The notes under the pieces: generated by a model
Told to the model about the DNA's origin: nothing
Database searches by the model: none
The model's input: only the letters and a program-made list of their open reading frames with translations
Assembly: GCF_964194155.1 (NCBI RefSeq)
Contig: NC_135885.1
Span: forward strand, 116,312,001-116,376,000
Source: Cetorhinus maximus
Taxonomy: Eukaryota
DNA length: 64,000 nucleotides
Reading direction: 5' to 3'
Position numbers and translations under genes: made by a program
Shown: one piece after another, positions 5,505-59,300 of the stretch
Numbering within the stretch: position 1 is the first letter of the stretch
Layout of the letters: the number at the start of each line of letters is the position of its first letter

Positions 5505-6697
5505 ATAGAACCATAGAAAACTACGGCACAGAAATGGACTATTCAGCAAATCGTGTCTGTACCAGCCAAAAAAGAACATTTTTTAAAAAATCTAGCCGCC
5601 CATTATATTGCCACCTTCCAGCACCTGGTCCATAGCCTTGCAGGTTACAGCACTTCAGGTGATGATCAAGGTACCTCAGATGAGGGTTTCTGTCTCCACC
5701 ACCAAACCAGACAGCAAAGTCCAGACGCCCACCACCCTCTGGGCGAAGAACTTCTTCCTCATTTCCCCTCTAATCTTGCTACCAATCACCTTAAATCTGT
5801 GCCCTTTGTTAATTGACCTCTCCGCTAGGGGAAACAGGTCTTTCCTGTCTGCTCTATCTAGGCTCTTCATAATCTCGTACACCTCAATTAAGTCATCCCT
5901 CAGCCTCCTCTGTTCTAAGGAAAACAACCCTAGCCTATCCAATCTTTCCTCTTGGCTGCAATTTTCAAGCCCTGGCAATATTCTTGTAAATCTCCTCTGC
6001 ACACTCTCCAGAGCAATTATGTCCTTCCTGTAATGTGGCGACCAGAACTGTATACAAAATTCCAGCTGCAGCCTAGCCAACATTTTATACAGTTCCAGCA
6101 TTACATCCCTGCTCTTGTGTTGAAAACCTTGTCCAACAAAGGAAAGCATTTCATATAAAAGCAAAAAACTGCGGATGCTAGAAATCCAAAACAAAAAAAA
6201 ACTGGAAAAACTCAACAGGTCTGGCAGCATCTGCGGAGAGGAACACAGAGGAACTGTGTTCCTCTCCGCAGATGCTGCCAGACCTGCTGAGTTTTTCCAG
6301 GTATTTTTGTTTTTGTTTTGTAAAGCATTTCATATGCTTTTTTCACCATCTTATCCACCTGTTCTGCCACCTTCAGGGACCTATGGAAATGCAATCCAAT
6401 GTTTCTTATTTCCTCTATCCTTCTCAATGTCCTCCCATTTATTGTCTATTCCCTAGCCTTTGTTTGCCCTCCCCAAATGCATTACTTCATACTTCTCTGA
6501 ATTAATTCCATCTGCCACTTTTCCGCCCACTCAACCAAACCATTGATATCATTTTGGAGACAACAGCTTTCCTCTTCACTATCAACTACATGGCTAATTT
6601 TCATGTCATCTGCAAACTTTCCAATCAAGCCCCCTCACATTTAACTCCAAATCATTAATATATACAACAAACAGCAAAGGCCCCAACCCTGAGCCCT
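5505..6697 (-). mobile_element. CR1 LINE 3' portion
   Basis: ORF 5676-6230 includes LYKMLARLQLEFCIQFWSPHYRKDIIALESVQRRFTRILPGL..RRLRDDLIEVY. 3' tail (ttctatgg-type repeat) at 5505-5520. Confidence 0.9.
6157..6321. mobile_element. Palindromic Penelope-like 3'-tail insertion (165 bp)
   Basis: Inverted arms around 6249-6253. Exact 14-bp TSD AAAGCATTTCATAT at 6143-6156 and 6322-6335. Confidence 0.9.
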
Positions 6698-11389: not shown

Positions 11390-12460
11390 ACTGAATAAAA
11401 GGGAGGGGCAGTAGCAGCATGGATACAAAGTTGGCTGAATGACAGGAAAAAGACGTTTTTTTCGGACTGGGGGAAAGTACTAAGTCGGGTTTTCCAGGGG
11501 TTAGTATGAGGACTATTGCTTTTCTTGATCTCTATTAATGATCTTGTCTTGTGAGTGCAGGGCACAAATTTCAAAATTTGCAGATGGCACAAAACTCAGA
11601 AGTAACGTGAACTGCGAGAAGAATAGTGATAGGCTTCAAGAGGTCATAGACTTTCTGGTGGAATAAGCAAACACATGGTAGGTGAAATTTAATGCAGCGA
11701 AGTGTGAAAAGATTCATTTTGAAAGGAAGAGTGAGAAAAGACCATATCAAATAAAGGATGCAATTCTAAAGGGGGCGCTGGAGCAGAGGGGCCTGGGGAT
11801 ATATGGGTACAAATTGTTGAAGATGGCAGAACAGGTTGAGAAAGCAGTTAATAAGACCTATGAACTTTTGAGCTTTATCATTAAAGGCATAGAGTACAAA
11901 AGGAAGGAAATTATGGTGAACCTTTATAAAACACTGGTTTGGCCTCAACTGGAGTATTGTCTCCAATTTGGGTTTAGGTGGGATATAAAGGCATTAGACA
12001 GGGTGTAGAAAAGATTTATGGGAATAGAACCAGAGCAAGGGACTTCAGTTATGTGCATAGATTGGAGAAGCTGAGAGAAAAGGATGTTGGATGAGACTTG
12101 AAAGAAGTGTTCAAAATCTTAAGGATTTTGGAAACAGTGATAGGGGAGGAACTGTTTCTCCTGGCAGAAGGGTCAAAAACCAAAGGACACCGATTTAAGG
12201 TGATTGGCAAAAGAACTAGAGGTGACATGAAGAAAAATGTTTTTTACGCAGCAAGTGGTTAGGATCTGACATGCACCGAGTGTCAATATGGTGGAGGCAA
12301 ATTCAATCATGACTTTCAGAAGGGAATTGGATAATTATCTGAATAGAAAAAGAAGTTGCATGGTTATGAGGAAAGGCAGGGGAGTAGGACTATCTGAGTT
12401 ACTCTTGCAGACAGCCAACATGGACATGACGGGCCAAATGACCTCCTTCTCTGCTGTAAC
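11390..12460 (+). mobile_element. CR1 LINE 3' portion
   Basis: ORF 11682-12008 MKFNAAKCEKIHF..LYKTLVWPQLEYCLQF; decayed FADDTKL at 11578; CR1 3'UTR at 12420-12460. Confidence 0.9.
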
Positions 12461-12463
12461 AAT

Positions 12464-18930: not shown

Positions 18931-19877
18931 ATATATTTGGGATATTAGCCAATCCCCAAACCATGTCTAAACAGCTACCACACAATAAAACAGATAAGGT
19001 TCCCCTCGTTCTCACTGTCCACCCCACTGGCATCCATATTCAATATATCATCCTCTGCCGTTTCCACCACAACCAGTTTGATGGCACCACCAAACACATC
19101 TTCCCCTCCCCTCCCTTTCAACATTCCACAGGGACTGTTGCCTCCATGATACCCTGCTCCACTCCTTAGTCACCTCCAACACCCATCCCTTTCCTATAGC
19201 TCCTCTTTATACAAGTGCAGGAGATGCAACACCTGCCCTTTTCCTTCCCTCCCCCTTCTCACCATTTAAGTTTCCAAACACACTTTCCAGCTGAAACAGC
19301 GATTTACTTGTACTCCTTTCAATACTGTATTTACTACTCACAATGTGGTCTCCTCTACACCTCAGGGACCAAATACAGACTTGGTGACCACTTTATGGAA
19401 CACCTTCTTTCAGTGGCAAGCACAGCCCTGAGTTTCCTGTAGCTTGTCAGTCCAATTCTATATCTTACTCCCACTCTGACCTTTCTGTCCTTGGCCTGCT
19501 ACAGTGTTCCAATGAAACTCAACTCACCTTTAGACTTTATCGCCTTCAGAACTCAGCATCAAGTTCAACAATTTGACATCATAAACTCTGCCCCCATTTT
19601 GTTTTACATTTTTTCTGGTTCGATTTTTTTTCTCTCATCTTTTTGGATTCCTTTACCTTGCATTTGATGGCTACGATACTACTATTCACACCTCATCCCA
19701 ACACATCTTTTGTATCTTTATTTCTCCCATTACCCTTCCTTTGGCTTTTGTATAATGATATCTTTTGGCCATTTAATCTGTCCTTCACTCCACCCTATCA
19801 CAGGCCTTTCCTTTTGTTACGTTTCTGCCCTCCAACCTTTCACTTGCTCAAAATCTACAGCACTTCGGATTTTCCTT

Positions 19878-19910
19878 AGTTCTGATGAAAGGTCATAGAC
19901 CTGAAACATT
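19878..19910 (+). ncRNA. Minimal hammerhead ribozyme of PLE, disrupted at its cleavage triplet
   Basis: AGTT CTGATGA A AGGTC ATA GACCT GAAAC ATT; the 3' strand GTT AACT is found at 21193 after the inserted MITE. Confidence 0.8.
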
Positions 19911-21192
19911 GGATGGAATTTAATGCTGTCCTCTTTGGTGAGTTTGATGGCAGGGGCAATTATTTCTCACTTAAGGGCCTCATCCTGCTAATGTTGTAAA
20001 GTGCGGGACTCACCATGTGGGGAACATGACAAGCAAACTCATGCGGAAGATTGGGGGGCCCGCTGAGAGCCACAGCCCTGGCCTTTCTGTACAAATCCCT
20101 CTCCCATGACCCCAATCCTATGACCCCATCCCGCCAATCCTGCCAAAATCACCTATGGCCTGGGATCTAGTGACAATACTAATGTAAGAACTTACGGTCC
20201 TGAATAAATTTTAAAAAAAAACTCTCATCTAAGTGGGTATTTCTGCATTTTGCAGGATTTTCGAAGCGGCATTGATTGCCTCTTTTTCTAAACACTTTGA
20301 CCTCTGAACAGTCTTCAGAAACAGCACAGTCACTTAGTTCAGGCTGCCTTCTTCAGATTCCTGAGTTATTAGGTGGTGTCCTGTGCACACCCTTATCTCC
20401 CAAGTCTTTAGAAAAGACCAAGATATGACCCTCAGCAAGATCTAAACCAAAAAACTGACCTCGAGCAGGATGACGAACAGGGTAGGTGGTAACCACCTTG
20501 ATGTTTGGAGTACCTGTCCTGTATCCATTGGTCAGAGTAGTTCCAATAAGGCAATTGATACTGGGTACGCTATCAGGCCCCCCCAAAAAAGGGTTTATAT
20601 GGGGAGGTCCTGCTGAGGGATCGTATACTGCTGAGGTACGGCTGAGGTGCTGGTGAGGTGGCAGTGCTCTTTGTGCAGCTGTCTTCTTCAGATGGAAGAT
20701 TGATCAGAGGAGAAGGAGGAAAATTGAGACATTGAGAGAAGAGTTTCCTAACACTTCGACTAGAGAACGGAATGCTGTTATCACAAGCTGTTACGGGTGG
20801 TATGCTTTTTTTCTGTCTAATTAGCTAAAGTATCGTATATGAACTGTTGTTTCTTAATAAACACAATAAACTATCTTAAAATTACATACGAATAGTCAAC
20901 TGCCTATGTAGGTATCTGTGGACCCGAATCCAGAAGTCTTACACTAAGCCTTGGGTGGGTGTAACATTGGCAGCAACTGCCTCCTCCCTAGTGGCACTGA
21001 TGTTCAATGTGGCTGCCGGCATCCCTCAGCAGGTGGGACTTTGGCCCCCAAGGTACTTGATTCCGGGAAAGGCCCGCCACTGTCCAATTAAGTGCCTGAA
21101 TGGCACTTAATTTGGCGTGCCTTCCTAAAAGAGGCAACACGGGGCTCTCGCCAGCTGGGCTAGGCCCCCGTTGCTTCCATTAAATACTGCCT
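19911..21192. mobile_element. Harbinger-type MITE containing a solo LTR
   Basis: Ends GGATGGAATTTAATG / CATTAAATACTGCCT; TSD ATT/GTT (CpG-decayed GTT); same family as 24874-25563. Confidence 0.8.
20183..20966 (+). mobile_element. Solo LTR (about 784 bp)
   Basis: TGTAAG...GTAACA termini, AATAAA signals near 20856-20870, interrupts the MITE. TSD not clear. Confidence 0.6.
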
Positions 21193-21225
21193 GTTAACTC
21201 TTCACATAGGCTGCCCAACCTGTAT

Positions 21226-22337
21226 GGAATAAAAGGGACAGTAGCAACGTGGATGCAAAATTGGCTGAAAAATAGGAAGTAGAGAGTAATGGTCAATGGA
21301 TATTTTTTGGGATGGAGGAAGGTTTGTAGCAGAGTTCCCCAGGGCTTGTTATTGGGATCCTTGCTTTTCCTGATATATATTAATGATTTGATCTTGGTGT
21401 GCAGGGGACAGTTTCAAAGTTTGTGGATAATAAGAAGCTTGGGACTGTTGTGAACTGCGAGGAGGATGGTGTGGAACTTCAAGAGGACATAGACAAGTTG
21501 GTGGGGTGGGCAGATAGGTGGCAGATGAAGTTCAATGCTGAGAAGTGTGAGGTGATGCACTTTGGTAGGAAAAACATGGACAGACAAAATAAAATAAAGG
21601 GTGGAATTTTGAAGGGGATGCAAGAGCAGAAAGACCTGGGTGTATATGTACATAGATCATTGAAGGTGGCAGGACAATTGGAGAGAGCAGTTAATAAAGC
21701 ACATCATATCCTGGGCTTTATTAATAAGGGCATCAAGTACAAGAGCTGGGAGGTTATACTGAATTTATATAAGACACTTGTTAGACCTGAGCTGGAGTAT
21801 TGTGTACAGTTCTGGCTGCCACACTATAGGAAAGATATGAACACATTGGAGAAAGTGCAGAAGAGGTTTACAAGAATGGCTCCAGGGATTAGAAACTTCA
21901 GCTATGAGGATAGATTGGAGATATTGGGACTGTTCTCCTTGGAGTGAAGAAGGCCAAGAGGGGATTTGATAGAGATGTTCAAAATCATGAGGGGGCTGGA
22001 CAGATTTGATAGGGAGAAGTTGTTCCTGCTCACAAAAGGATCAAGAACGAGAGGGCACAGATTTAAAGTGATTTGCAAAAGAAATAAATGTGACGTGAGA
22101 AAAAACTTTTTCAGACAGCGAGTGGTTCGGGTTTGGAATGCACTGCCTGGAAATGTGGTGGAGGCAGGTTCAATAGAGGCATTCAAGAGGGCATTAGATG
22201 ATTATTTAAATAGAAACAATGTGCAGGGGTATGGGGAAAAGGCGGGCAATGGCACTAAGTCATAATGCTCATTTGGACAGCTGGTGCAGACACGATGGGC
22301 TGAATGGCCTCCTTCTCTGCTGTTAAAATTCTGTGAT
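21226..22337 (+). mobile_element. CR1 LINE 3' portion, relatively young
   Basis: ORFs 21399-21947 and 21966-22265 encode the CR1 ORF2 C-terminus; 7-bp TSD CCTGTAT at 21219-21225 and 22338-22344. Confidence 0.92.
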
Positions 22338-28150: not shown

Positions 28151-28159
28151 ATTACCTTT

Positions 28160-30085
28160 TTCTTTTATTCATTCAAGGGATGTGGGTGTTGTTGGCTAAG
28201 CCAGCATTTATTGCCCATTCCTAATCGAGAAGGTCGTGGTGAACTGCCTTCTTGGACCACTGGAGTCCATGTGGTGTAGGTATACCTACAGTGCTGTTAG
28301 GGAGGGAGTTCCAGAACTTTGACCAGTAACAGTGAAGGAACGGCAATATATTTCCAAGTCAGGATGGTGAGTGGCTTGGAGGGGAACTTGCAGGTAGCGG
28401 TGTTCTCATGTGTCCTCTGTCCTTGTCCTTCTAGATGGCAGTGGTCGTGGGTTTGGAAGGTGCTGCCTAAGGAGGCTTGGTGAGTTCCTGCAGTGCATCT
28501 TGTAGATGGTACACACAGCTGTCATTTTGTATTGGTGGTAGAGGGAGTGAATGTTTGTGGATGGGGTACAAATCAAGTTGCCTGCTTTGTCCTGCGTGGT
28601 GTCAAGCTTCTTGAACATTGTTGAAGCTGCACTCATCCAGGCAAGTGGAGAGTGTTCCATCATACTCCTGACTTGTGCCTTGTAAATGGTGGACAGGCTT
28701 TGTGGAGACAAGAGGTGAGTTTCTTGTCGCAGGATTCCGAGCCTCTAAGCTGCTCTTATAGCCACAGTATTTATATGGTTAGTCCAGTTCATTTTCTGAT
28801 CAATGGTAACCCCCAGGATGTTGATAGTGGGGGATTTAGCAATGGTAATGCCATTGAATGTCAAGGGATGATGCTTAGATTCTCTCTTGTTGGAGGTGGT
28901 CATTGCCTGGCATTTGTGTGGCACGAATGTTACTTGCCACTTGCCAGCCCAAGCCTGGATATTGTCCAGGTCTTGCTGCATTTGGACACAGACTGCTTCA
29001 GTATCTGAGGAGTCACGAATGGTGCTGAACCTTGTGCAATCATCAGTGAACATCCCCACTTCTGACCTTATGATGGAAGGAAGGTCATTGATGAATTGAT
29101 GAAGGTCAAGATGAAGATGATTGGGCCTAGGACACTGCCCTGAGGAACTCCTGAGGGATGTGCTGGAAGTGAGGTGATTGACCTCCAACAACCACAACCA
29201 TCGTCCTTCTTGCTAGGTATGACTCCAGTCAGTGAAGAGTTTTCCCCCTGTTTACAAATGACTCCAGATTTGCTAGGGTTCTTTGATGCCATACTCTGTC
29301 AAATGCTGTCTTGATGTCAAGGGCAATCCTCTCAACTTGTTCTTGGAATTCATCTCTTTTTGTCCATACTTGAACCAAGGCTGTAATGAGGTCAGCAGCT
29401 GAGCGATCCTGGTGGAACCCAAACTAAGCATCAGTGAACAGGTTATTGCTAAACAAGTGCCGCTTGATAGCACTGTAGGTGACCCCTTCCACCACTTTAC
29501 TGATAATGGGGCGGTAATTGGCTGGATTGGATTTGTCCCACTTTTTGTGTACAGGACATACCTAAACAATTTTCCACATTACTGGGTAGATGCCAGTGTT
29601 GTAGCTGTCCTTGAACAGCTTGGCTAGGGATGCGGCAAGTTTTGGAGCACAAGTCTCTGGTACTGTTACTGAAAGATTGACAGGGCCTTTGCAGTATACC
29701 ATGCCTTCAGCTGTTTCTTGATAGCATGTGGAGTGAATCGAATTGGCTGAAGACTGGCACCTGTGATGCTGGTGACCTCAGGAGGAGGCCAGGATGTATC
29801 ATCCATTTGGCACTTCTGGCTGAAGATTCTTGTAAAGGCTTCAGCCTTATCTTTTGCACTGATGTGCTAGGCTCCCAATCATTGAGGGTGGGATATTTGT
29901 GGAGCCTGCCTCTCCAGTGAGTTGTGAATGGTGGTGGATTATTAAACAACCAGATGTGGAAAGACTGCAGAGTTTAGATCTGATCCATTGGTTGCGGGAT
30001 CGCTTAGTTCTGTCTATCGCTTGCTGTTTGGTACGCAAGTAGTCCTGAGTTGTAGCTTCACCAGGTTGACACCTCATTTTTAGGG
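28160..30085 (-). mobile_element. Second LINE family (CR1/L2 group), RT to 3' end
   Basis: GVPQGSVLGP, FINDLPSIIRSEVGMFTDDCT, IYKAQVRSMMEHSPLAW; 3' tail ..cacatccc..gaatgaataaaa at 28160-28190. Confidence 0.9.
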
Positions 30086-30087
30086 GG

Positions 30088-30331
30088 AAGGCATTTGTAT
30101 TGTGACTGGACTAGTAATCCAGAGATGCAGTGTAATGCTCTGGGGACCTGGGTTCTAATCCCACCATGGAATTAAAAGACTAATTGTAATGACTCACTGG
30201 GGATAGTGCACTGTAATAGTGGGGCTTGATATTACAGTGCACTATCCCCAGTGAGTCATTACAATTAGTCTTTTAATTCCATGGTAGGATTAGAACCCAG
30301 GTCCCCAGAGCATTACACTGCATCTCTGGAT
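30088..30331. repeat. tRNA-derived SINE head duplicated as a near-perfect 102-bp-arm palindrome
   Basis: Arms 30117-30218 and 30230-30331 with one mismatch seen and an 11-nt loop; contains B-box-like GGGTTCTAATCCC. Confidence 0.85.
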
Positions 30332-30334
30332 ATA

Positions 30335-33300
30335 AACTTCAAAGTGTTGAAGAGACAACAACAATGCTAGAGTTTTTTTTCTACTGTAGAGTACATCCAC
30401 CGATATTGATTTAGTTTGTTGGAAAAGTACCCCACTGGCTTCTCTATCCCTAATTTATCATCTTGTAATTGAGCTGCACCTACCCCCAAGTCACTGGCAT
30501 CAACCGCCATTTTAAAAGGTTTAGTAAAGTCAGGGGTGGTCAACACAGGTTCATTTATTAAGATTGCCTTCAGCTTTTCAAAGGCTGCTTGGCATTCAGC
30601 CGACCATACCACTTATGCCTGTTTTCTTAACAAATTGGTCAGAGGTACAGCTATGGTGCTGAAATTAGGCACAAAGTTCCTATAAAACCCACACATTCCC
30701 CAAAACCTCATAATTTCTCATTTGATTTTAGGAATGGGCAATTCTATTTGGGTGTTCACTTTTGATGTTTTCGGCAACGCCTGCCGTTGTCCGACAATGT
30801 GACCTAGGTAAGTTACTCTTGCTTTTGCAAATTCGCTTTAGGCCAGATGTATGACCAAGCCCACTAACTGCAATTGCTTAAATAGGTCCTGTAAATGCTT
30901 AGATAGAAGCAAAATACTGCAGATGCTGGAAATCTGAAACAAAAACAAAAAATGCTAAAAAAACTCAGCAGGTCTGACAGCATCTGTGGAGAGAAAGACA
31001 GAGTTAATGTTTCCAGTCTGTATGACTCTTCAAAAGAGTAACACGGACTCGAAACGTTAACTCTGTCTTTCTCTCCACAGATGCTGTCAGACCTGCTGAG
31101 TTTTTCCTGCATTTTTCATTTTTGTCCTCTAGATGCTTTACATGCTCTTCCCATGTGTTACTATATATGACAACAGCATCTTAATAAACCACCCAGTTAG
31201 GTACTTCAGCTACGATTCAATTCAAATGTCTCTGGAATGTAGCTGGGGTGTTTTTAAACCCAAATGACATGACGAGACATTGATATAATCCACTTGGTGT
31301 AACAAAGGCGGATATTTCTTTAGCCTTTGATGTTAATGGCACTTGCCAATACGCCTTCAATAGGTCAATTTTAGAAAGAAATGACGCACTGCCCACCCTA
31401 TCGATGCAATCCTCTAGCCGAGGAATCGGATACAAATCTGTCCTCGTTACTATATTCACTTTCTGGTAGTCTATACAAAATCTAGTGGATCCATCCGGCT
31501 TAGGAGCCAACATGACCGGTGAGCTCTAGCTGCTTTGACTAGGCTTGATCAATTTATTTTCCAGCATATATTTGATCTCTGTTTCTAAAAGAGCTCGCTT
31601 TTCTGGGCTCAACCGATGCAGATGTTTTATCGGCACTGCGTCTCCTACGTCCACATCATGTTTAGTTAATGTAGTACATCCAGGTGTATCCCTACAATTT
31701 TCCTTATACTTCCTAAGTAACCTTATTAAATCTTCTTGTGGTCCTTCCTCTAAATGTGAGAACACAGTGTCAAACAGTCCCATTATTTTCGTATTGGCTA
31801 GTTGAATTGTAGGTGGTTCACTTTGTGTGCTGTCTACTTCTCCTTCTAACTGACTTCTACTGTTTTTGGCATCCTCCACTACTCCTACCATCATCTCCTC
31901 TGCAATAATACTGCTTCAACATGTTTATGCGACATAACCGTTTCTTCTTCCTATGTTCAGGAGTATCTATCAGGTAAGGCACTGCACTAACTCTCCTAAC
32001 TATCTTCTAGGGGCCACTGAATTTCGCTTTCAGGGGTTCACCTGCAAAGATAACAATACCAACACTTTGTCCCCTGTTTGGGAGGTTCTAGTTGTAGCAT
32101 GTTTGTCTGCCCATTCTTTCATTTTGGCTTGGGAAATTTTTGAATGCTCTCCTGCTACTTTACATGCCCCTGTGAGACTTTCTAGAAACATGGACACATA
32201 ATCCAACATGGAGGATTCTTCTTTCGGCTTCAGGAACTTTCCTTTAATCAAGTTTAATGGATCTCTTTTTCTCATGATCGCAGATCAATTCAAATGGACT
32301 AAATCCAGTAGATTCACTAGGAGAATCTCTGGTATCGAACAGTAAGAAATCTAATCATTTGCCCCAATCCTTTGGGTATTCATGGCAATAGGTCATAATC
32401 ATGGTTTTGAGAGTCTGATCGAATCTCTCCAAAGCTCCCTGTGTCTGTGGGTGATAAGCGGTAGACTTTAGTTGTTTGATACCCAAATTGCTGATTATAT
32501 GCTGGAAAATCTTAGGCATGAAGTTCAAACCTTGATAAGATTGTATTTCAATTGGTAGGCCATAAGGAATGAAAAACTGAGTTAACTTTTCTACTACCAC
32601 CTTCCTGTAATTGCCCTTAAAGGAATAACTTCTGGAAATCGTGTGATCATATCCATGATTGTAAGGATATATTGATGTCCTGCTTTTGTTTTGGGTAATG
32701 GCCCTACACAATCTACTAATACCCGACTGAATGATTCTTCAAAAAACTGGTATAGGTATTAAAGGTGCTGGTTTGATTACATGTTAGAGTTTACTTACTG
32801 CCTGACATGTATGACATCCTTACAAAATGGTGCTGGTTTGATTGCATGTTGGGGTTTAGCTACTCCCTGACATGTATGACATGCCTTGCAAAATTGCACT
32901 ATGAGCATATTAAGTCTTGGCCAGGTAAAATGCCTGTTTATCGATGCTTGGGTTTTCTGTATTCCTACATGTCCCGCCATTGGGATTTCATGTGCTACTT
33001 GCAATATCTCCTTAAAATATTTGGGCAGTATCACTGTCTGATGAACAACCATCCATTCCTCATCCACAGGTCTGATGGGGGTGATGGGAGAAAGGGTGTC
33101 TCCACTTCCTCATCAGAACTCTGTTTTTAAGCTCTCCGGAACTCCTTCAGCCTCAGCTTCAGTGTGAGCTGACTGTGCTAACTTGTTTAACTCTGGATCT
33201 GCTTTCTGAGCCTCAATTAAGGAAGACGTGCCAAACACTTCCTTTGAATTATCCTCATCCTTAAAGGAAGTTTTGGCTACTCTAACACCTGCTCATGGTA

Positions 33301-35593: not shown

Positions 35594-38500
35594 ATGAAAC
35601 CCTCCGCTCCACGGTTCAGTAATGCCTTCCTGGATTCTCCTCCACACTGCCCAGGAAAGACAAGAGGTCCTCTCACCTTGGGATGGGAGAAGGAGGCCCT
35701 CGCACCTGACTATGCTGGCCTGAGAGGGGGTTGCCAGAGAGGTCAGTAGCTGTGCCAAACAAAAAAGGACTGTCCTGCAGTTCAGGAAGAGAATGAATGA
35801 TCTGATCGACTCTGATCTACGCACTCCAAACTCTCACTCTCTTAAGGGCATCAGGCAGTCTAATGGTTAGAGTCCACAGGGATATCATACAGTATCAGCA
35901 GATGGGACAGCAGCACTGATTGTCTGCCAGCCACTTTACCATCTCATCATGTAAGGTCCTGCACAAACGTCTTTAGCCCGTACTGATGAGGGCGCAGCAC
36001 ACACAGCAGACATGCATGCTTCTGAAATGCTCTTTTAGCTGTAGTGCTCACAGTCAATCCAACTATCTGTATGCAGGATAAGATAGCCCGCAACAGAAGG
36101 GAGAAGGACAAGACCGGAGGTGGGACCCCAGAGTAGCGGGACCTCTCTACCTTTGCGGACAAGGTGGCTGAGTTAGCTGGTGAAGACAGAGATTGTTCCT
36201 CTGCGTAAGGTGAAATTAGCCTCCCCCAACAAGTGAGGATGCATCCTGTATAGATTGACAACATGCAGACACTGAATTTGCATGATATATAATGTAGGAG
36301 ACTGCCTAGTCAATCACTAATTCTCTCTTCTCCTGATTCCTCGTACCAGTAAGAAATGGCAGAAGATGAGGTCCAGCCCCAGCCCCCAGACCACCGCCAA
36401 TGAGGTTGCTGAAGATCCATTTATAGAAGAGCTGTCACTATATTCACCTGCACACTCCACCAGCGCAGATACACACACCTTGGTTGGCCCTAGTTCAAGA
36501 GTAGGCTTGGGTTCACTTGGTTGGTGATCACCTCCCAGACACGTGTCTACAACAGACGGAGGCATTGACAGCTGAGGTCGCTGACTCTTGGAGGACTGCT
36601 GGGCCCCGCGGAATCTGAGTCCGATGATGAGCCTCTGCAATTGGCCTTCAGAGACATGTTGGAGATGCAAAGACGGGAGGGGGAACATCAGGCAGAGCTT
36701 TTAGAGGCCATCACCAGACTTGAATGAAGGATGGAGAAGTCTGCCACGTCCTGTCTGATGTCATAGCTCCAGCATACGAGCACATCGAACTCTCCATTGG
36801 AAGAAGGGCAGCAGCCTTGGAGACCCAGGACCAGCAGAATGCACAGTTTCTACCAGATTTGCACTCGGGTCTGCACTACATCACTCAAGCCATGCGTACA
36901 TTCCAGCTACATTCCAGCATTGGCTAGGCAAGAGGGGGATGGGGCACCTCGATCCCCCCAGATGCTTTTTCTCCTCAAGGAGTCAGGGAGGGGACCTTGG
37001 GCACCTAAAATGAGGAAGGGTGTCAGCTGGACAACTCGGGACCATCCACCCAGGAGTCCCCTAGGTTGACTTGGTGTTCCAAATCCCCCCTGCCTGTGAT
37101 CTCATCAATTCCAGCAGGCCAAGCCCTGCACCTTTTTTTCTTATTCACTCATGGGATGTGGGCTTTGCTGGCTGGGCCAGCATTTATTGCCCATCCCTAA
37201 TTGCCCTTCTTGAACCGCTGCAGTCCATGTGGTGTGGGTACACCCACAGTGCTGTTAGGAAAGGGGTTCCAGGATTTTGACCCAGTGACAGTGAAGGAAC
37301 AGTGATATATTTCCAAGTCAGGATGGTGTGTAGTTTGGAGGGAATCTTTGATGTGGTGGTGTTCCATGCATCTGCTGCCCTTGTCCTTCTAGATGGTAGC
37401 AGTCATGGGTTTGGATGATGCTGTCGAAGGAGCCTTGGTGAGTTCCTGCATCTTGTAGATGGTACACACTGCTGCCACTGTTAGTCGGTGATGGAGGGAG
37501 TGATTGTTTGTGGATGTGGTGCCAATCAAGTGGTCTGCTTTGCCCTGGATGGTGTCAAGCTTCTTGAGTGTTATTGGAACTGCACTCACCCAGGCAAGTA
37601 GAGAGTATTCCATCACACTCGTGACTTGTGCCTTGCAGATGGTGGACATGCTTTGGGGAGTCAGGAGGTGAGTTACTCACTGCAGGATTCCTAGCCTTTG
37701 ACCTGCTCTTGTAGCCACAGTATTTATATGGCTAGTCCAGTTCAGTTTCTGGTTGAGCGTAACCCCCAGGATGTTGATCGTGGGGAATTCAGCAATGGTA
37801 ATGCCATTGAATGTTAAGGGGCAATGGTTAGACTCTTGCTTGTTGGAAATTGTCATTGCTTGGCACTTTTGTGTGGCACAAATGTTACTTGTCACTTGCC
37901 AGCCCAAGCCTGGATATTGTGCAGGTTTTGCTGCATTTGGACATGGACTGTTTCAGTATCTGAGGCGTCATGAGTAGCGCTGAACATTGAGCAATCATCA
38001 GCAAACATCCCCATTTCTGACCTTATGATGTAAGGGAAGTCATTGATGAAGCAGCTGAAGATGGTTGGGCCTAAGACACTACCCTGAGGAACCCCTGCAG
38101 TGATATACTTGAACTGAGACGATTGACCTCCAACAACCACAACCATCTTCCTTTGTGCTAGATATGACTCCAACCAGCAGAGAGTTTTCCCCCTGTTCCA
38201 TTGACTCCAATTTTGCTAGGTCTCCTTGATGCTACACTCGGTCAAATGCTTGATGTCAAGGGGAGTCACTCTTACCTCACCTCTGGAGTTCAACTCTTTT
38301 GTCCATGCTTGAACCAAGGTAATATGGTTAAGAGCTGAGAGACCCTGGCGGAACCCAAACTGACTGTCAGTGAGCACGTTATTGCTAAGCAAGTGCCACT
38401 TGATAGCATTGTTGATGACCATTTGCTGATGGTCCACTGTAGACCGATGGGGCAGTAATTGGTTGCGTTGGATTTGTTCTGCTTTTTGTATATAGGACAT

Positions 38501-38900
38501 ACCTGGACAATTTTCCACATTACTGGGTAGATGCCAATGTTTTATCTGTACTGAAACAGCTTGGCTAGGGGCACAGTAAGTTCTGGAGCACAAGTCTTCA
38601 ATACTATTGCACTAATATTGTCAGGGCACAAAGCCTTTGCAGTGTTCAGTGCCTCCCAGTTGTTTCTTGATATCATGTCGTGAGTCGAATTGGCTGAAGA
38701 CTGGCATCTGTGATACTGGGACCGAGACGGATGTCAATGTTCAGTCCCAGAGCAGGAGACCCTGAGCAGGCTGGGACCCTCCAGGTCTCAGGCCCTCAGA
38801 CAACGCGTGTGAATTTAATTTCAGACAACAGTGCATAGCTGTCAGCAGGCTGCCTCCATCTCTGCTGTGGATGTCAGGGCTGCACCAAGGCGATAGTGTG
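35594..38900 (+). pseudogene. Harbinger Myb/SANT-like DNA-binding protein gene, multi-exon, disrupted
   Basis: KPSAPRFSNA..EVSSCAKQKRTVLQFRKRMNDLI (exon 1); acceptor at 36076 then DKIARNRREKDKTGGGTP; last exon split by a LINE. Confidence 0.8.
37132..38730 (-). mobile_element. CR1/L2-group LINE (same family as 28160-30085)
   Basis: ITAGVPQGSVLGPTIFSCFIND..MFADDCS; ICKAQVTSVMEYSLLAW; same 3' tail at 37132-37200. Confidence 0.9.
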
Positions 38901-41620: not shown

Positions 41621-42153
41621 TTGATTTGATCCCTCTTCGTAAGCATCTGGATCTTACTGGCACTAGTTCCTCAGGTCGATGGTGTTCCTTGAGCTATGCC
41701 AAATGGCGACAGGCCCTTCTTCTCCTCACTCGCATCAAAGCTATCAAGAAGGCAGCACTGCCTGCAGCTTGCATTCTCCACTCCTCCTTGTACCTCTGAA
41801 GAATAGATTTGAGACATCATTGCACCTTCCCCTTGAATGCTCTATCACTATCTCCAATCTAGGAAGCCAATGTCCTTCCCTCAGTCTATGGCATCCCCAG
41901 GCCACCTCTGCAGCTGAAGCACATCCTGAAGGTCCACAGGTGGCTGAGCATCCCTCTCTGACATGACTGTGCCTTAACAAAGAGGCTCTTGATCAGGGTG
42001 CATACACTTATGTGCGGTAACCCTCAGTCAGCCTATTTTTAACTTACACAAATATAAAAACAAAAAACTACTGCGGATGCTGGAAATCCAAAACAAAAAC
42101 AGAATTACCTGGAAAAACTCAACAGGTCTGGCAGCATCGGCGGAGAAGAAAAG

Positions 42154-42192
42154 AGTTGACGTTTCAAGTCCTCATGACCCTTCAACAGAACT
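42154..42192 (-). ncRNA. Minimal hammerhead ribozyme variant
   Basis: Sense AGTT CTGTTGA A GGGTC ATGAG GACTT GAAAC GTC AACT: stem I AGTT/AACT, stem II, palindromic ACGT, GUC triplet. Confidence 0.75.
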
Positions 42193-43384
42193 GAGCAATA
42201 TCGGAAGAAGGGTGAAATATAAGCTGGTTTAAGGTGGGGGGGGAGAGAAGTTGGGGGGGAGGTGGGGGTGGTTGTAGGGACAAGCAAGCAGAGAAAGGAG
42301 CAGATAATCAAAAGATGTTACAGATAAAGGAACAAAGAGGTGTTGAAGGTGGTGATATTATCTAAATGAATGTGCTAATTAAGAATGGATGGCAGGACAC
42401 TCAAGGTACAGCTCTAGTGGGGGTGGGGTGGAAAGACTGACAGGGCATTACAGGTATAGATTTAAAAATAATGGAAATAGGTGGGAAAAGAAAAATCTAT
42501 ATAAATTATTGGAAAAAACAAAAGGGAGGGGGAAGAAACGGAAAGGGGGTGGGGATGGAGGACGGAGTTCAAGATCTAAAGTTGTTGAATTCAATATTCA
42601 GTCCGGAAGGCTGTAAAGTGCTTAGTCGGAAGATGAGGTGCTGTTCCTCCAGTTTGTGTTGGGCTTCACTGGAACATTGCAGCAAGCCAAGGACAGACAT
42701 ATGTGGGCAAGAGAGCAGGGTGGAGTATTAAAATGGCAAGCGACAGGGAGGTTTGGGTCTTTCTTGCGGACAGACTGCAGGTGTTCTGCAAAGCGGTCGC
42801 CCAGTTTACGTTTGGTCTCTCCAATGCAGAAGACCTGCATTGGGAGCAACGGGCCACCCTGCTCTCTTGCCCACATATGTCTGTCCTTGGCTTGCTGCAG
42901 TGTTCCAGTGAAGCCCAACGCAAACTGGAGGAACAGCACCTCGTCTTCTGACTAGGCACTTTACAGCCTTCCAGACTGAATATTGAATTCAACAACTTTA
43001 GATCTTGAACTCCCCCCTCCATCCCCACCCCCTTTCCGTTTCTTCCCCCTCCCTTTTGTTTTTTCCAATAATTTATATAGATTTTTCTTTTCCCACCTAT
43101 TTCCATTATTTTTAAATCTATACCTGTAATGCCCTGTCAGTCATTCCACCCCACCCCCACTAGAGCTGTACCTTGAGTGTCCTGCCATCCATTCTTAATT
43201 AGCACATTCTCTTAGATAATATCACCACCTTCAACACCTCTTTGTTCCTTTGTCTATAACATCTCTTGATTATCTGCCCCTATCACTGCTTGCTTGTCTC
43301 TACAACCACCCCCCCTCCAACTTCTTTCCCCCCACCACCCCACCTTAAACCAGCTTATATTTCACCCTTCTCCTGATATTGCTC

Positions 43385-43423
43385 AATTCTGTTGAAGGGT
43401 CATGAGGACTCGAAATGTCAACT
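43385..43423 (+). ncRNA. Minimal hammerhead ribozyme variant (second arm)
   Basis: AATT CTGTTGA A GGGTC ATGAG GACTC GAAAT GTC AACT. Confidence 0.7.
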
Positions 43424-45174
43424 CTTTTCTTCTCCGCCGATGCTGCCAGACCTGCTGAGTTTTTCCAGGTAATTCTGTTTTTATTTTTAACTTACCTTCA
43501 TTAACCTAGACACTAACTTAGCCTTGTACTAATGTCATGACTGTGAGCATTGTGCCCTGTAAGCCATGACCATTGAAATGAGAGTATCGAGGTTTGTAGT
43601 GTGCATGTAGCTTCAGTCCAGCAGCTGTGGCACTTGATTGTTTGATCCTCCTTCCCATTTTACATATCTCTGGCAGGGACAGGTGCCCAATCAGATCTCA
43701 TCGAATGTAGCACCAAATCTTAATGGATTGCTGCATGAATGCAAACCATGAGTGAATGTGCTATAGTCCTTCAATGGGCATTTGATCCACAAAAACAGTA
43801 CTCAACTGAGACTTGTAATTCATGTCTTGAGCACATAATTATTATGTTGCCCCTTCAATTGTCCCAAAATTGTATTCGGGAACTCCTCCCAATTGCCTTG
43901 AGATCCCTCACATATCATTTTTTTCACATATCTTTTTCCAGCTGCGGCATTGCTGGTTAAGGGCGAAGATGGTGCTGTTATATTTTGTGAACGCCACCAA
44001 TACCTTCCCATCTCCCCCGGTCACCACAACTTCCTCCCATTCTCCTCCACTGTCACCATTTCCTAATTCCCATCCCTCCTGTAACTATTCAGCCTCCCCC
44101 GTTACCCTTGACCCCATCGTTGTGCACATGGATATCCCTGTGCACCCCCCATTCCCTTCAACGTTGATGTCCCCATGCTATTTGTTGATCTCATCCCTCC
44201 CTTTTTTGAGGCCGCCTACACTCTCGCTTTCAGATACCCATCCCATGAGACCTACTGAATACAGATGCCTCCCATCAATGTTACTATACCCCCTGTTTGC
44301 CAAACCACACAACCAAATGCCTTGTTTCACTGACCACACCCTGTGCATGACTGTCACTGCCCAGCAAGGCCCTCCCCTACTCAGGGCCAGGATCAAGACA
44401 TGCGTGCCGTGCAGAGCCCTCTAACATGTCCTGCACAGCCCCAGGTCAATCTGTTATAGCTGCCCCCGACAACGTGGTCTCAGTCCCAGGACAGTCCCTG
44501 ACTCCTCTTTGAACAGTCTTATAAATCTTGCCCCTGGACAGTCTTTCACTACTCCACCCCTCCTCACCAGTCATGCCTCTTCCCCCCTTCCCTCTCATGT
44601 TCCACTGGCCCAACGCCAGTCATGCCTCCATCTTCCCCCTTTCCCTCTGGTGTTGTCTGACAGGCACCAGCCTTGATGCAGAATCGGAGAAGCACTGAAA
44701 TATCGCAGCACCACTGTTAAAGGTAGACAAAAGTAGCGTCTGCATGCCTCAAAGCTGTCGATGAAGTAAGGCTCACCAGGCGCACGCCACTTAAATAGAG
44801 TCATGAAACAGACCGTTCAAATTATCTGCTGGCTGGGCACTTAAATTGGAGGGGAATGGGAGCACTCATGAGATGCAAGTGAATGCAAATGTGGTTCCTG
44901 ACATAGGTCAGCAGGAAAGTCTTTAATCCACCATCAAAGTCGGGAGAACAAATTCCAAACTGATTTCCTGAAGGCAGGAAACTGACTTTTGCAAACGTTG
45001 CAAAGTTTCTGCCCCCACCAGCCACGATTCTGGCCACTACCAAGAGCAGAAAATTCCACTCAGCATTTTGAGTCAAATATGACTTTTCTTTAATTCTTTT
45101 TTAAATCTCATTTTAATGTTCATTTTTACAGATTAGTGTGACCATCCTTCCTTCTTGCTTCTAGTGGGAACATG

Positions 45175-46875
45175 TTTAAGAACAAAAGAGCATAAAACCC
45201 TAAGAAATAAGAGCAGGAGTAGAACATATAGCCTCTTTGAGCCTGCTGCACGTGTATATATTTATGATCATAGCTAATCTTTTGCCTCAAATCCATTTTC
45301 CACATTCCTTTATTCCCTGAGAGAGTAACAATTTATCTATCCCAGCCTTGAATGTATTCCACAATGGAGTATCCTCAAACATCTGGGGCAGAGAATTCCA
45401 AAGATTCACAACCCTCTGAATGAGAAAAATTCTCCTAATCTCAGTGATAAACAATCGATCCCTTAACGATGCTCTAGATTCTCCAGCCAAGTGAAATGAC
45501 CTCTGTGTCTATCCTGTCAAGGACCTTCAGAATCTTATGTTTCAATGAGATCATCTCTTATTCTTCTAAACTTTGGAGAGTATTGATCCAATTAACCACC
45601 CCCTCATCCCAGGAACCAAAAGAGTAAACCTTCACTGTACTGCCTCCACGCCAAGACCAAAATTCCACACATTACTCCAGGTATGGCTGCGTGCAGTTGG
45701 AGCAGGACTTTCTTCTTTTTCTACTCAGTCCCTTGGCAATAAAGACCAACATGCCATTTGCTTTCCTAGCTACATGCTGTACCTGCTTGCTAACTTTCTG
45801 TCTCTTTGAACATCAACATTTAAGTTTCACACCTTTTACAAAAAAATGTTTTTTCTTATTCTTATTACAAATAAAGGAAAAACCAGTTCAAAATTTTCAA
45901 ATCCCAGTAAAAATCGGTATTACTGATACCAGTAATACAGGAGTTCCATTTTAAGGTATACAGGACCGATTTTGGGGAGTGAATAGCTTCACCCTTCCTC
46001 ATATTATACTCTATCTGCTACCTTGTTTCCCATTCGCTCAATCTATCCATATCTCTTTGCAGCCTCATTGTATCTTTCTCACAGCTTACATTCCCACCTA
46101 GTTTTGTACCATCAGAAAACTTGGGGCAGAATTTTTAGGTGGGCAGTTGGGCGCGATCGGCTGGCCCGGGGAACGGACCACCAACTGCGATCGGCCCCCG
46201 AACGCGATTTCAAGCTGGCTGGCCAATTAATGGCCAGCCAGCATGAAACGTGCACTGAGAAGCTCAGCACTGCCGGGGTGGGGGCAGGAAGAGGGCGGGC
46301 GCTGACGTGCGCGCGGGCGCAAGCGAGCACCAACAGAGAGCTGCTTCAGGGTGCTGATGACCTGAAAAATCCTCAAATAAAGTTTTGAAAAGCAGAAAAA
46401 ATGTCCAAGCATCCCAAACAGGCATCTGAAAATGCTGTCCACCAATTTTAATTTTTAATTTTATTTCATCATGGAAACCTCATCCCGCCCTTGGATGAAG
46501 TTTCATGAAAAATGTAAAGTCTGCCTGGCCGATTTGCCCATCCACCAACCGTAAGGTTGGATGGGCGACATAAAATTAAGGACAATTGCACTGTTAATGA
46601 CCTGAATTGGCCTCTTAATTGTCGGTGGGCGCGCTTCCAACTTCTGCACGACCCGCCAACCGTAATATTGCGCAAGCGCGGGATGACGTCGGGACACTTG
46701 CCTGATGTCATGTTACGCGGTTTCACTCCGGATTGGGTCGGGCGTGCGCCCACCTGCCCGAGCTAATAATTCTGCCCTTGGCTACATTACTCTCAGTCTC
46801 TTTGTCTAAGTCATTGCAAATAGTTGAAGTGAGCACTGTTCTTTGCTGCACTCTACCAGTTAAAGCCTGCTAATG
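45175..46875 (-). mobile_element. CR1 LINE 3' portion interrupted by a MITE
   Basis: ORF 45287-45490 QRVVNLWNSLPQ; 3' tail aagaaataagagcaggagtag at about 45200; KFSDGTKLG split at 46121. Confidence 0.8.
46124..46777. mobile_element. Young Harbinger-type MITE (654 bp)
   Basis: TIRs GGGCAGAATTTTTAG / CTAATAATTCTGCCC; exact TSD TTG (46121-23, 46778-80); CpG-rich. Confidence 0.9.
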
Positions 46876-56369: not shown

Positions 56370-59300
56370 TCTCTGGGTGACCAAGGATGGGAATGAAACA
56401 TCCAGGGGTATTCAATATTTAGGAAGGACAGACAAATAGGGAAAGGAGATGGGGTAGCATTGTTAGTAAGGAAGGAAATCAATGTAATAGTGAGGAAGGA
56501 TATTGGCTCAGAAAATCATGATGTGGAATCTGTTTGGGTGGAGTTGCTGGGGGTTGTCTATAGGCCCCCAAACAGTAATGGAGTTGTAAGGGAAGGCATT
56601 AAGCAGGAAATTAGAGACGTATGCAGTAAGGGTACAACTGTAATCATGGGTGACTTTAATCTACATGTAGATTGGACAACCAAACTAGCAATAATGCTGT
56701 GGAGGAGAATTTCCTTGAGAGTGTATGTGATGGTTTTTTAGACTAACACGTTTAGGAACCAACTAGAGAGCAGGCTATCCTAGACTAGGTATTGTGCAAT
56801 GAGAAAGGATTAATTAACAGTCTTGTTGTGCGGGGTCCCTTGGGGAAGAGTGACAATAAAATGATAGAACTGTTCATTAGGATGGAGAGTGAAGAAATTG
56901 AATCCAAAACTAGGGTCCTGAATCTAAATAAAGGGAACTACGAGGGTATGAGACTCGAGTTGGCAATGATGGATTGGGGAACCTTACTACAAGGCTTGAC
57001 AATAGATAGGCAATGGCTAATATTTGAGGAACATATGTATGAATTACAACAATTATTCATTCCTGCCTAACGCAAAAATAAAACAGGAAAGGTGGCTCAA
57101 CCATGGCTTGCAAAATAAATTAGGGATACTATTAGATCCAAAGAGGAGACATATACAATTGTCACAAAAAGGAGCAGTTTAGAATTCAGCAAAAGTGGAC
57201 AGAAAGATTGATCAAGAAAATGGAGTATGAGAGTAAACTTGCAAGGAACATAAAAACTGACTGTAAAAGCTTCTATAAATATGTGAAGAGAAAAAAATTA
57301 GCAAAGACAAACATAGGTCCCTTAAAGTCAGAAAGGGCGGAAATTATAATGGGGAACAGAGAAATGGCAGAAGAATTTAACACATTTTGGTTCTGTCTTT
57401 ACAAAAGAGGACACAAATAATTTCCTAGAAATGTTAGGGAACCAAGTGTCTAGTGAAAGGGAGGAATTGAAGAAAACCAGTATTGGTAAAAAAATGGCGC
57501 TAGAGAAATTAATGGGATTAAAGGCTGAGAAATCCCCAGGGCCTGATAATCTACATCCCAGAGTACTAAAGGAAGTGACCCTGGAAATATTGGATGCATT
57601 GGCGGTCATGTTCCAAAATTCTATCGACTCTGGAGCAGTTCCTACAGATTGGAGGGTGGCAAATGTAACCCCACTATTTAAAAAACGAGGGAGAGAAAAA
57701 ACAGAGGCCAGGATTTTCCCCTTGGCGATTTGAGGGCGGGGCCCGCTTGCTGAGGGGAAAATGGCGCGGGATGATGTTGGGAGGAATCCCCGACGTCATC
57801 CCGGGCCATTTAAATCTTAAGGAAGGCGGGCGGACAGCGAAATCAGCTGTTCGCCCTCCGGCCTGTCAATGGCCAATTAAGGCCATTGACAGGTTCATTA
57901 AGATAGTTAAATGCCCTGCCCAACCAACCTTAAGGCTGGCGGGCAGGCCAGGAACCTCAGTGGGCTCCAGATTATTAATGAAACTTCATCCACTGGCGAG
58001 ATGAAGTTTCATAGTTTCATTACCATTTTGTAAAACTTTAATAAATTTTAAGTGTTTACTATTAACATGTCCCATCTCATGTGACATTGTCACATGAGGG
58101 GGACATGATAATAATTTTAAAATGTCTCTATTTTTTGACTTTACTTACCTTTCACTAAACTCCCTGAGACAGGACTTTGTCTCAGAGAGCAGTGCGCTCT
58201 TTCGCGTGCATGTGCGACAGATGGGGAACCCCTCCACCCCCCCGCACAGGAAGTGCATTGCGCTTCCTGTTGGGCAGGCCGCTGGGCGGGCCTAAATTGG
58301 CCTGCCCACTCAAAATGGCGGCGGGCCCTGTTTTGGCAGGAGGGTTCGGCTGCCCGCCCGCCGCCGAGCCGGTGGGGCCCACCTGCCAGCCAAGGGCTAA
58401 ATTCTGCCCAGAGAATTACAGACCAGTTAGCCTAACGTCAGTAGTCGGGAAAATGCTAGAGTCTATTATAAAAGAGAACAGATAAAAGATAAACAGAACA
58501 CTTGGAAAACATTAACGGGATTAGACAATGTCAACATGGGTTTATGAAAAGGAAATTGTGCTTAACTAAACTACTGGAGATTTTTGAGGATGTAACTAGT
58601 AGAATAGATAAGGGAGAACCAGTGGATGTGGTGTATTTGGATTTCAAGAAGGCTTTTGATAAGGTCCCACATAAGATGCTAGTGGGCAAAATTAAAGCAC
58701 ATGGGATTAGGGGTAATATACTGGCATGGATTGAGAATTGGTTGATAGACCAGAAACAGAGAGTGGGAATAACTGGGTCTTTTTCCGGGTAGCAGGTGGT
58801 AACTAGTGGTGTATTGCAAGTATCAGTGCTTGGGCCCCAGCTATTCACGATATACATAAATGACTTGAATGATTAAACCAAATGCAATATTTCCAAGTTT
58901 GCTGACGACACAAAACTGGGCGGGGTTGTGAGTTGTGAGGAGGATGCAAGGAAGCTTCAGGGTGATTTAGGCAAGTCATGTGTGTGGGCGAACACATGGC
59001 AGATGCAGTATAACGTGGATAAATGTGAAGTTATATGCTTCAGTGTGAAAAACAGAAAGGCAGAGTATTATTTAAATGGTGATATATTGGGAAACGAAAA
59101 TAAGGGATCTGGATGTCCTTGCTCACCAGTCAATGAAAGTAAATAAGAAGGTGCAGTAAGCAATTAGGAAGGTGAATGGTATGTTGGCCTTCATTGCAAA
59201 AGGATTTGAGTTCAGAAGTAGGGATGTCTTACTTCAGTTATACGGGACCTTAGTGAGACCACACCTGGAGTATTGTGTGCAGTTTTGGTTTCCCTAACAA

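Follow-up and report, generated by a model that had tools for sequence, protein, structure and literature searches.

Harbinger MITE insertions concentrate at the predicted cleavage triplet of a Penelope hammerhead in Cetorhinus maximus, probably through a chance match of DNA motifs

In a 64,000-nucleotide stretch of the Cetorhinus maximus genome (assembly GCF_964194155.1, contig NC_135885.1, positions 116,312,001 to 116,376,000, forward strand; the window), a Penelope hammerhead motif is interrupted by a Harbinger-type transposon at the triplet where the ribozyme is predicted to cut. The question raised by this locus is whether the motif is a preferred Harbinger target and, if so, whether the ribozyme has any part in the preference. 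Searches were extended from the window to the whole 3.99-Gb assembly. At least several hundred independent MITE insertions were found to lie at this one hammerhead triplet, and the highly probable reason is that the letters of the ribozyme (GAAAC-GTT-AACTCT) happen to resemble, as DNA, the Harbinger target motif. The features of the locus are given below (window coordinates, strand, description, basis).

18993..19526, + strand: decayed 3' end of a Penelope-like element ORF (GIY-YIG endonuclease region); homology to other loci
19564..19910, + strand: Penelope pLTR up to the hammerhead; 72-76% identity to pLTR stretches in L191, L254 and L040
19878..19910, + strand: putative 5' part of a minimal type I hammerhead, from the stem I 5' strand to the first triplet copy; sequence, with the architecture described in the available part of PMC4209133
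19878-81, + strand: stem I 5' strand AGTT; sequence
19882-88, + strand: core CTGATGA; sequence
19889, + strand: single extra A; sequence
19890-902, + strand: stem II AGGTC-ATA-GACCT; sequence
19903-07, + strand: GAAAC; sequence
19908..19910, + strand: left target-site duplication ATT (decayed GTT); sequence and empty sites
19911..21192, no strand assigned: non-autonomous Harbinger element (MITE), TIRs 19911-19925 and 21178-21192; family copies L002-L030 and TIR type
20183..20943, + strand: solo LTR of an LTR retroelement, 761 bp, TGTAAGA...TCTTACA; copies elsewhere and ends
21193..21195, + strand: right target-site duplication GTT, the predicted GUU cleavage triplet; sequence
21196..21222, + strand: stem I 3' strand AACT (21196-99) and a short, internally deleted Penelope tail remnant; sequence and other tails
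21227..22329, + strand: fragment, presumably LINE-type, later or neighbouring, after the Penelope tail; 68% identity to window 11393-12463

The window hammerhead (19878-19910) reads AGTT-CTGATGA-A-AGGTC-ATA-GACCT-GAAAC-ATT, with the core CUGANGA, GAAA, UH and stems I and II. It lies in a pLTR behind an ORF end (18993-19526) assigned to the GIY-YIG type by homology. That region shares 66-72% identity, over 400-550 bp, with numerous other loci translating to C-x-x-C and YCIxCSQCGxLYIGET, a stretch taken here to be the GIY-YIG motif; its own reading frames are broken, and a Pfam search of it returned no match. The palindrome at 15.2-16.2, which replaces helix III, was ACGT in 36 of the 100 empty cores listed and a decay form in most others; in the left half of the window hammerhead it has become ACAT. 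No Rfam model matched the window hammerhead at E<=1, so the call is based on sequence features and on the description in the available part of PMC4209133. Empty hammerhead sites, from the genome list and from window copies, read GAAAC-GTT-AACTCT, and a single triplet was therefore duplicated at the window insertion. The left copy, ATT, is attributed to CG>CA decay and the CCT at the right end of the element to CG>TG decay; to judge from the G retained on the right, the triplet was probably still GTT when the element entered. Since stem I (AGUU/AACU) places the predicted cut after GUU, it is the predicted cleavage triplet that was duplicated. The sequence-only reading had described GAAAC, ATT, a 1.28-kb MITE with a nested LTR and GTT-AACT in that order, and this was confirmed (element 1,282 bp, LTR 761 bp). 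Its identification of the duplicated 3-mer with the GUU at the predicted cleavage site was also borne out, ATT/GTT being a decayed GTT duplication.

With the nested LTR removed the MITE is 517 bp long. Its ends, GGATGGAATTTAATG / CATTAAATACTGCCT, are decayed versions of the family TIR GGGCNGAATTT and were missed by a generic repeat finder. The 517 bp (below ~800 bp) presumably have no coding capacity of their own, and 40 matches to the family were scored. Duplications in the family are of 3 bp, with identical 3-mers in 16 of 40 raw TIR pairs and a one-base difference in 13. A GGGCNGAATTT-type end was located ~1 kb (1.05 kb) upstream of DDE_Tnp_4 in 20/20 transposase loci examined; the genome search for DDE_Tnp_4 gave 76,312 first-look candidates, 150 of them scored. 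The far ends of autonomous elements were examined in two cases. One of these, L339 (250-4638), is a 4.4-kb autonomous element with both TIRs and a CTA/CTA duplication, and is tied to the window MITE by TIR type. Its transposase ORF matches DDE_Tnp_4 (E 3e-42), and a stop-free piece of a second, broken ORF matches Myb_DNA-bind_5 (Myb/SANT; E 1.7e-5). Short TIRs starting with G, a 3-bp duplication and a 4.4-kb partner with DDE transposase and Myb/SANT are shared with PIF/Harbinger elements of the PHIS superfamily as described in the available parts of PMC4482050 and PMC9179366; by these features the window element is classified as a Harbinger-type MITE. Two further Harbinger MITEs lie in the window (46124-46777 and 57706-58409), with exact 3-bp duplications (TTG and AGA) at consensus-like targets. 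The nested solo LTR has TG...CA ends and a 4-bp duplication, CTAA (20179-82, 20944-47). Forty other copies were scored among 1,101 candidates, and a primer-binding-like stretch after or a polypurine run before the LTR was seen at copies elsewhere.

Exact left junctions, in which a hammerhead end is joined to a TIR, numbered 794 genome-wide (405+389), and ~27 of 30 fetched junction loci were judged by eye to have hammerhead context. Right junctions numbered 585. A TIR within 0-30 bases of the core anchor was found 223 times genome-wide, against ~13 expected at the genome-mean rate. By eye, 76 of 100 listed core-plus-TIR matches were at the triplet, 16 lay six bases further along, at AAC-TCT-GTT, and the remaining 8 were at other positions; for 100 listed right junctions the counts were ~78, 17 and 5 (both histograms cover the first 100 places listed, on the first contigs only). 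Using 17,948 hammerhead cores as denominator, strict occupancy was 0.91% at the triplet and 0.19% at the second site, an enrichment of 320-420-fold and 67-88-fold over a genome mean calculated from 222,052 TIR-pattern matches after subtraction of 59,822 control matches and of the contribution of a look-alike repeat. With decayed TIRs included, 3 verified and 3 possible filled sites were found among 100 listed cores. Reversed-sequence controls of the junction searches yielded 0 matches but did not keep the TIR, and denominators and the LTR site described below were used instead. The left 8-mer GAAACATT was ~1.35% filled in hammerheads (range 0.7-3.4%, on a denominator of 7 sites in 980 kb) vs 0.11% elsewhere, which indicates that the right flank matters. 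Along the Penelope tail there is a peak at GAAAC^GTT^AAC, ~12-fold over other sites with the same 8-mer, as the sequence-only reading had anticipated.

These MITEs are not specific to hammerheads. Only an estimated ~1-2% of MITE ends are at hammerheads, with 98-99% elsewhere; a single hammerhead-triplet element (2 ends) was present among 240 unselected strict ends, and 0 of 100 GGGCTGGATTTT ends were at the hammerhead triplet. A GGGCTGGATTT-ended family dedicated to hammerheads was considered and rejected: it made up ~16 of 100 in the junction list, yet none of 100 ends of this type from the whole genome lay at the triplet. At one locus (L036), a pair of hammerheads within 3 kb of each other, one on either strand, have both been hit at the triplet, by MITEs that differ (706 and 137 bp).

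The general target was derived as a weight matrix. LINE/SINE look-alikes contaminated the initial matrix, which was replaced by a filtered version (158 ends) and then by one from a strict pattern (271 ends, all non-hammerhead). The final matrix gave approximately A-A-N-A-C / N-W-N / G-T-N-T-T, with A or T at the middle triplet base in 74% of the 271 ends. The duplication is NWN (commonest ATT, TAT, ATG, AAT and CAA), unlike the PIF/Harbinger duplications in the available parts of PMC4482050 and PMC9179366, where it is TWA, CWG, ANT or TNA alone. When four empty hammerhead copies were scanned, the two observed peak triplets ranked first and second in all four. The ATT form scored 220-fold, the GTT form 43-fold and the second site 54-74-fold. 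For the hammerhead triplet, the 43-220-fold predicted is to be compared with 320-420 observed, and the matrix ranks the second site over the GTT form, though insertions at the triplet are about fivefold more numerous; the matrix was built from decayed flanks, in which G after C is under-counted.

A second hotspot was found in a 255-bp LTR-like repeat (698 copies) with the site GGAAAC-ATT-AAGTTT, whose core letters GAAAC-ATT-AA are those of the decayed hammerhead. Among the first 100 of the 698 copies, 24 were filled, 11 of them with a strict TIR. This was the highest occupancy seen in the analysis and is ~10-fold that of the hammerhead triplet per copy, for repeats that may differ in age. One filled copy (L342) has a clean ATT/ATT duplication, and the repeat accounts for 8 of 100 listed GAAACATT-plus-TIR matches. 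Some copies have a hammerhead-like run, CTGCAGA, upstream; it varies among 8 copies, and no A6, stem I, palindrome or workable hammerhead was found in those 8. That a site sharing these core letters is hotter without any ribozyme is the best evidence for a preference directed at DNA sequence. At ~5,000-fold observed, the matrix is >10-fold short here (rough hand estimate). Since a simple matrix of independent positions under-predicts both sites, the true preference presumably includes a cooperative or shape term (GAAAC-WTT-AA) common to the hammerhead and the ribozyme-free LTR site. Next to the LTR hotspot, the opposite strand of the repeat has an AATAAA resembling a poly(A) signal (genome-wide; L341-L343, L268, L302, L039, L211, L113). 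Two flanks before GAAACATT plus TIR each occurred twice (C1:79874343 and C1:135198762; C1:25379111 and C1:76545234), which suggests more repeat-borne hotspots.

The CpG state of the target was then compared between filled sites (CG 7, CA 42, TG 12, TA 7) and empty sites (36, 25, 16 and 3; p=1.4e-5). Neutral decay after insertion is expected to yield CA and TG evenly; CA:TG was 42:12 at left junctions, 43:11 at right junctions and 25:16 at empty sites. In 30 curated insertion pairs chosen without regard to GTT or to the integrity of the core, G was present on neither side in 18 and retained in 12. The CA excess at both junctions and the 18 pairs without G suggest that about half of the hammerhead insertions entered copies in which GTT had already decayed to ATT and GUU was lost.

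These data bear directly on the idea that the ribozyme or the Penelope machinery guides insertion, with the Harbinger transpososome drawn to the point of cleavage by a nick, an R-loop or an extruded hairpin. Guidance would account for a peak exactly on the predicted scissile triplet and for an occupancy two- to tenfold over the simple matrix, and stem II does provide a short inverted repeat adjoining the triplet. It is nevertheless improbable: the fuller LTR site has no hammerhead, the decayed ATT form is favoured by insertions, and the neighbouring site, which has no catalytic meaning, also peaks as the matrix predicts. The claim of the sequence-only reading that the ribozyme sequence is a preferred Harbinger target is upheld for the site but not for a link to the ribozyme as such, given the LTR site, the targets already without GUU and the location of most ends elsewhere.

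The count could also reflect copying and not targeting, if a few Penelope-plus-MITE composites had been amplified by retrotransposition. Of 52 end pairs identified automatically, visual inspection removed 13 that were false or lay outside hammerheads; the 39 retained include the 30 above. A single MITE family supplied 11 of the 52 raw pairs, and two near-identical neighbouring pairs were present in the junction lists, as copying would produce. However, the 39 curated pairs range from 101 to 1,964 bp, belong to many unrelated families and occur in both orientations, which argues that the insertions are independent; the hosts belong to at least two Penelope subfamilies, and even the largest MITE family at the triplet is present in both orientations with 67-89% pairwise identity. 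Copying is therefore largely refuted and is the least probable of the alternatives. Selection, by which insertions would be retained or favoured because the host benefits from a silenced ribozyme or because repeats offer safe sites for insertion, is only slightly less remote. Insertion into a dead repeat is, as a matter of general knowledge, likely to be harmless, but a safe-harbour effect cannot yield a single-triplet peak within one element, most of the 4-Gb genome is equally neutral, and GUU was already gone from about half of the targets.

The hotspot is real and striking, and its best explanation is that a sequence preference already known for Harbinger encounters a matching site in a high-copy repeat. 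According to this chance-match explanation, the transposase complex would read ~8 bases either side of the triplet, and CpG decay of the hammerhead palindrome from ACGT to ACAT would improve the match, so that dead ribozyme copies would be better targets than live ones. The MITEs would then be neutral passengers in hammerhead copies that were mostly inert beforehand.

The effect of insertion on the ribozyme was considered separately. Its destruction, as proposed in the sequence-only reading, is possible but goes beyond what the sequence shows. The element separates the first GUU from stem I, and the duplication sets a second GUU before AACU. Although the simple stem I contact is broken, the duplicated triplet and paired TIRs could leave a hammerhead-compatible arrangement. 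It is possible, but unlikely, that insertion rebuilds the ribozyme: C15.2 would pair with the G of the second copy, the TIR helix past a 3-nt bulge would act as helix III, and a dimer-dependent motif would become a self-cleaving monomer. Weak cleavage after addition of helix III to a single minimal motif is described in the available part of PMC4209133. If such completion works, a DNA transposon would create active ribozymes by insertion, and ribozymes completed in this way would have been present at hundreds of loci when these arose. In only 3 of the 39 copies, L268 and L257 among them, were core, stem I and the two helix III pairs all preserved. In none of these three was the hammerhead the predicted minimum fold, its cost being 3.1, 11.3 and 17.5 kcal/mol, and TIR pairing was 0.8-1.0 in 5 of 8 folded copies. 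Neither these full-feature counts nor the folding of natural loci gave any indication that completed ribozymes were selected for. The window copy costs 11.3 kcal/mol and its TIRs do not pair; with decayed TIRs and a nested LTR, it is very likely dead.

The minimal Penelope hammerhead, as described in the available parts of PMC4209133 and PMC6155905, lacks helix III, has a palindromic CG and an extra base after A9, and is thought to act as a dimer. The motif here resembles the metazoan pLTR hammerheads in the available part of PMC4209133 in the absence of helix III, the palindromic 15.2-16.2, the extra base, the short stem I and the thousands of lone copies, and differs in that 10.1-11.1 is readable as A-U or, with two unpaired bases, as G-C. 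That part of PMC4209133 makes no mention of transposon insertion at the motif, and no report of Harbinger insertion at hammerheads was found in the literature searched (subscription journals, Repbase reports and supplements aside). Zebrafish Harbinger3_DR has the palindromic target AAACACCWGGTCTTT (PMC3016246, available part). Shared with it are the 3-bp duplication, an A-rich left flank ending in AC, a right flank starting with GT and hotspots set by primary sequence; unlike it, the motif here is looser, the strongest sites are the asymmetric GAAAC-WTT-AA, and the hotspots lie within other high-copy repeats. The available part of PMC9179366 gives no Harbinger in elephant shark, against the 76,312 first-look DDE_Tnp_4 candidates here (150 scored).

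The hotspot offers a clean example from nature in which one transposon family has exploited the same nucleotide position of a different element hundreds to thousands of times. Two abundant repeats, with up to ~1/4 of copies occupied, provide a data set for vertebrate Harbinger target rules, in which the asymmetric GAAAC-WTT-AA outperforms prediction from a palindromic consensus. They also serve as a warning that an exact coincidence of insertion and catalytic position need not be functional.

Other repeats were noted in the window. Inverted pairs of Penelope tails form long palindromes at 6179-6322, 30939-31125 and 42090-43487 and gave spurious Rfam microRNA matches. A 215-bp near-perfect palindrome (95%) lies at 30117-30331, and 28154-29777 and 37130-38723 are 1.6-kb direct copies with 80% identity.
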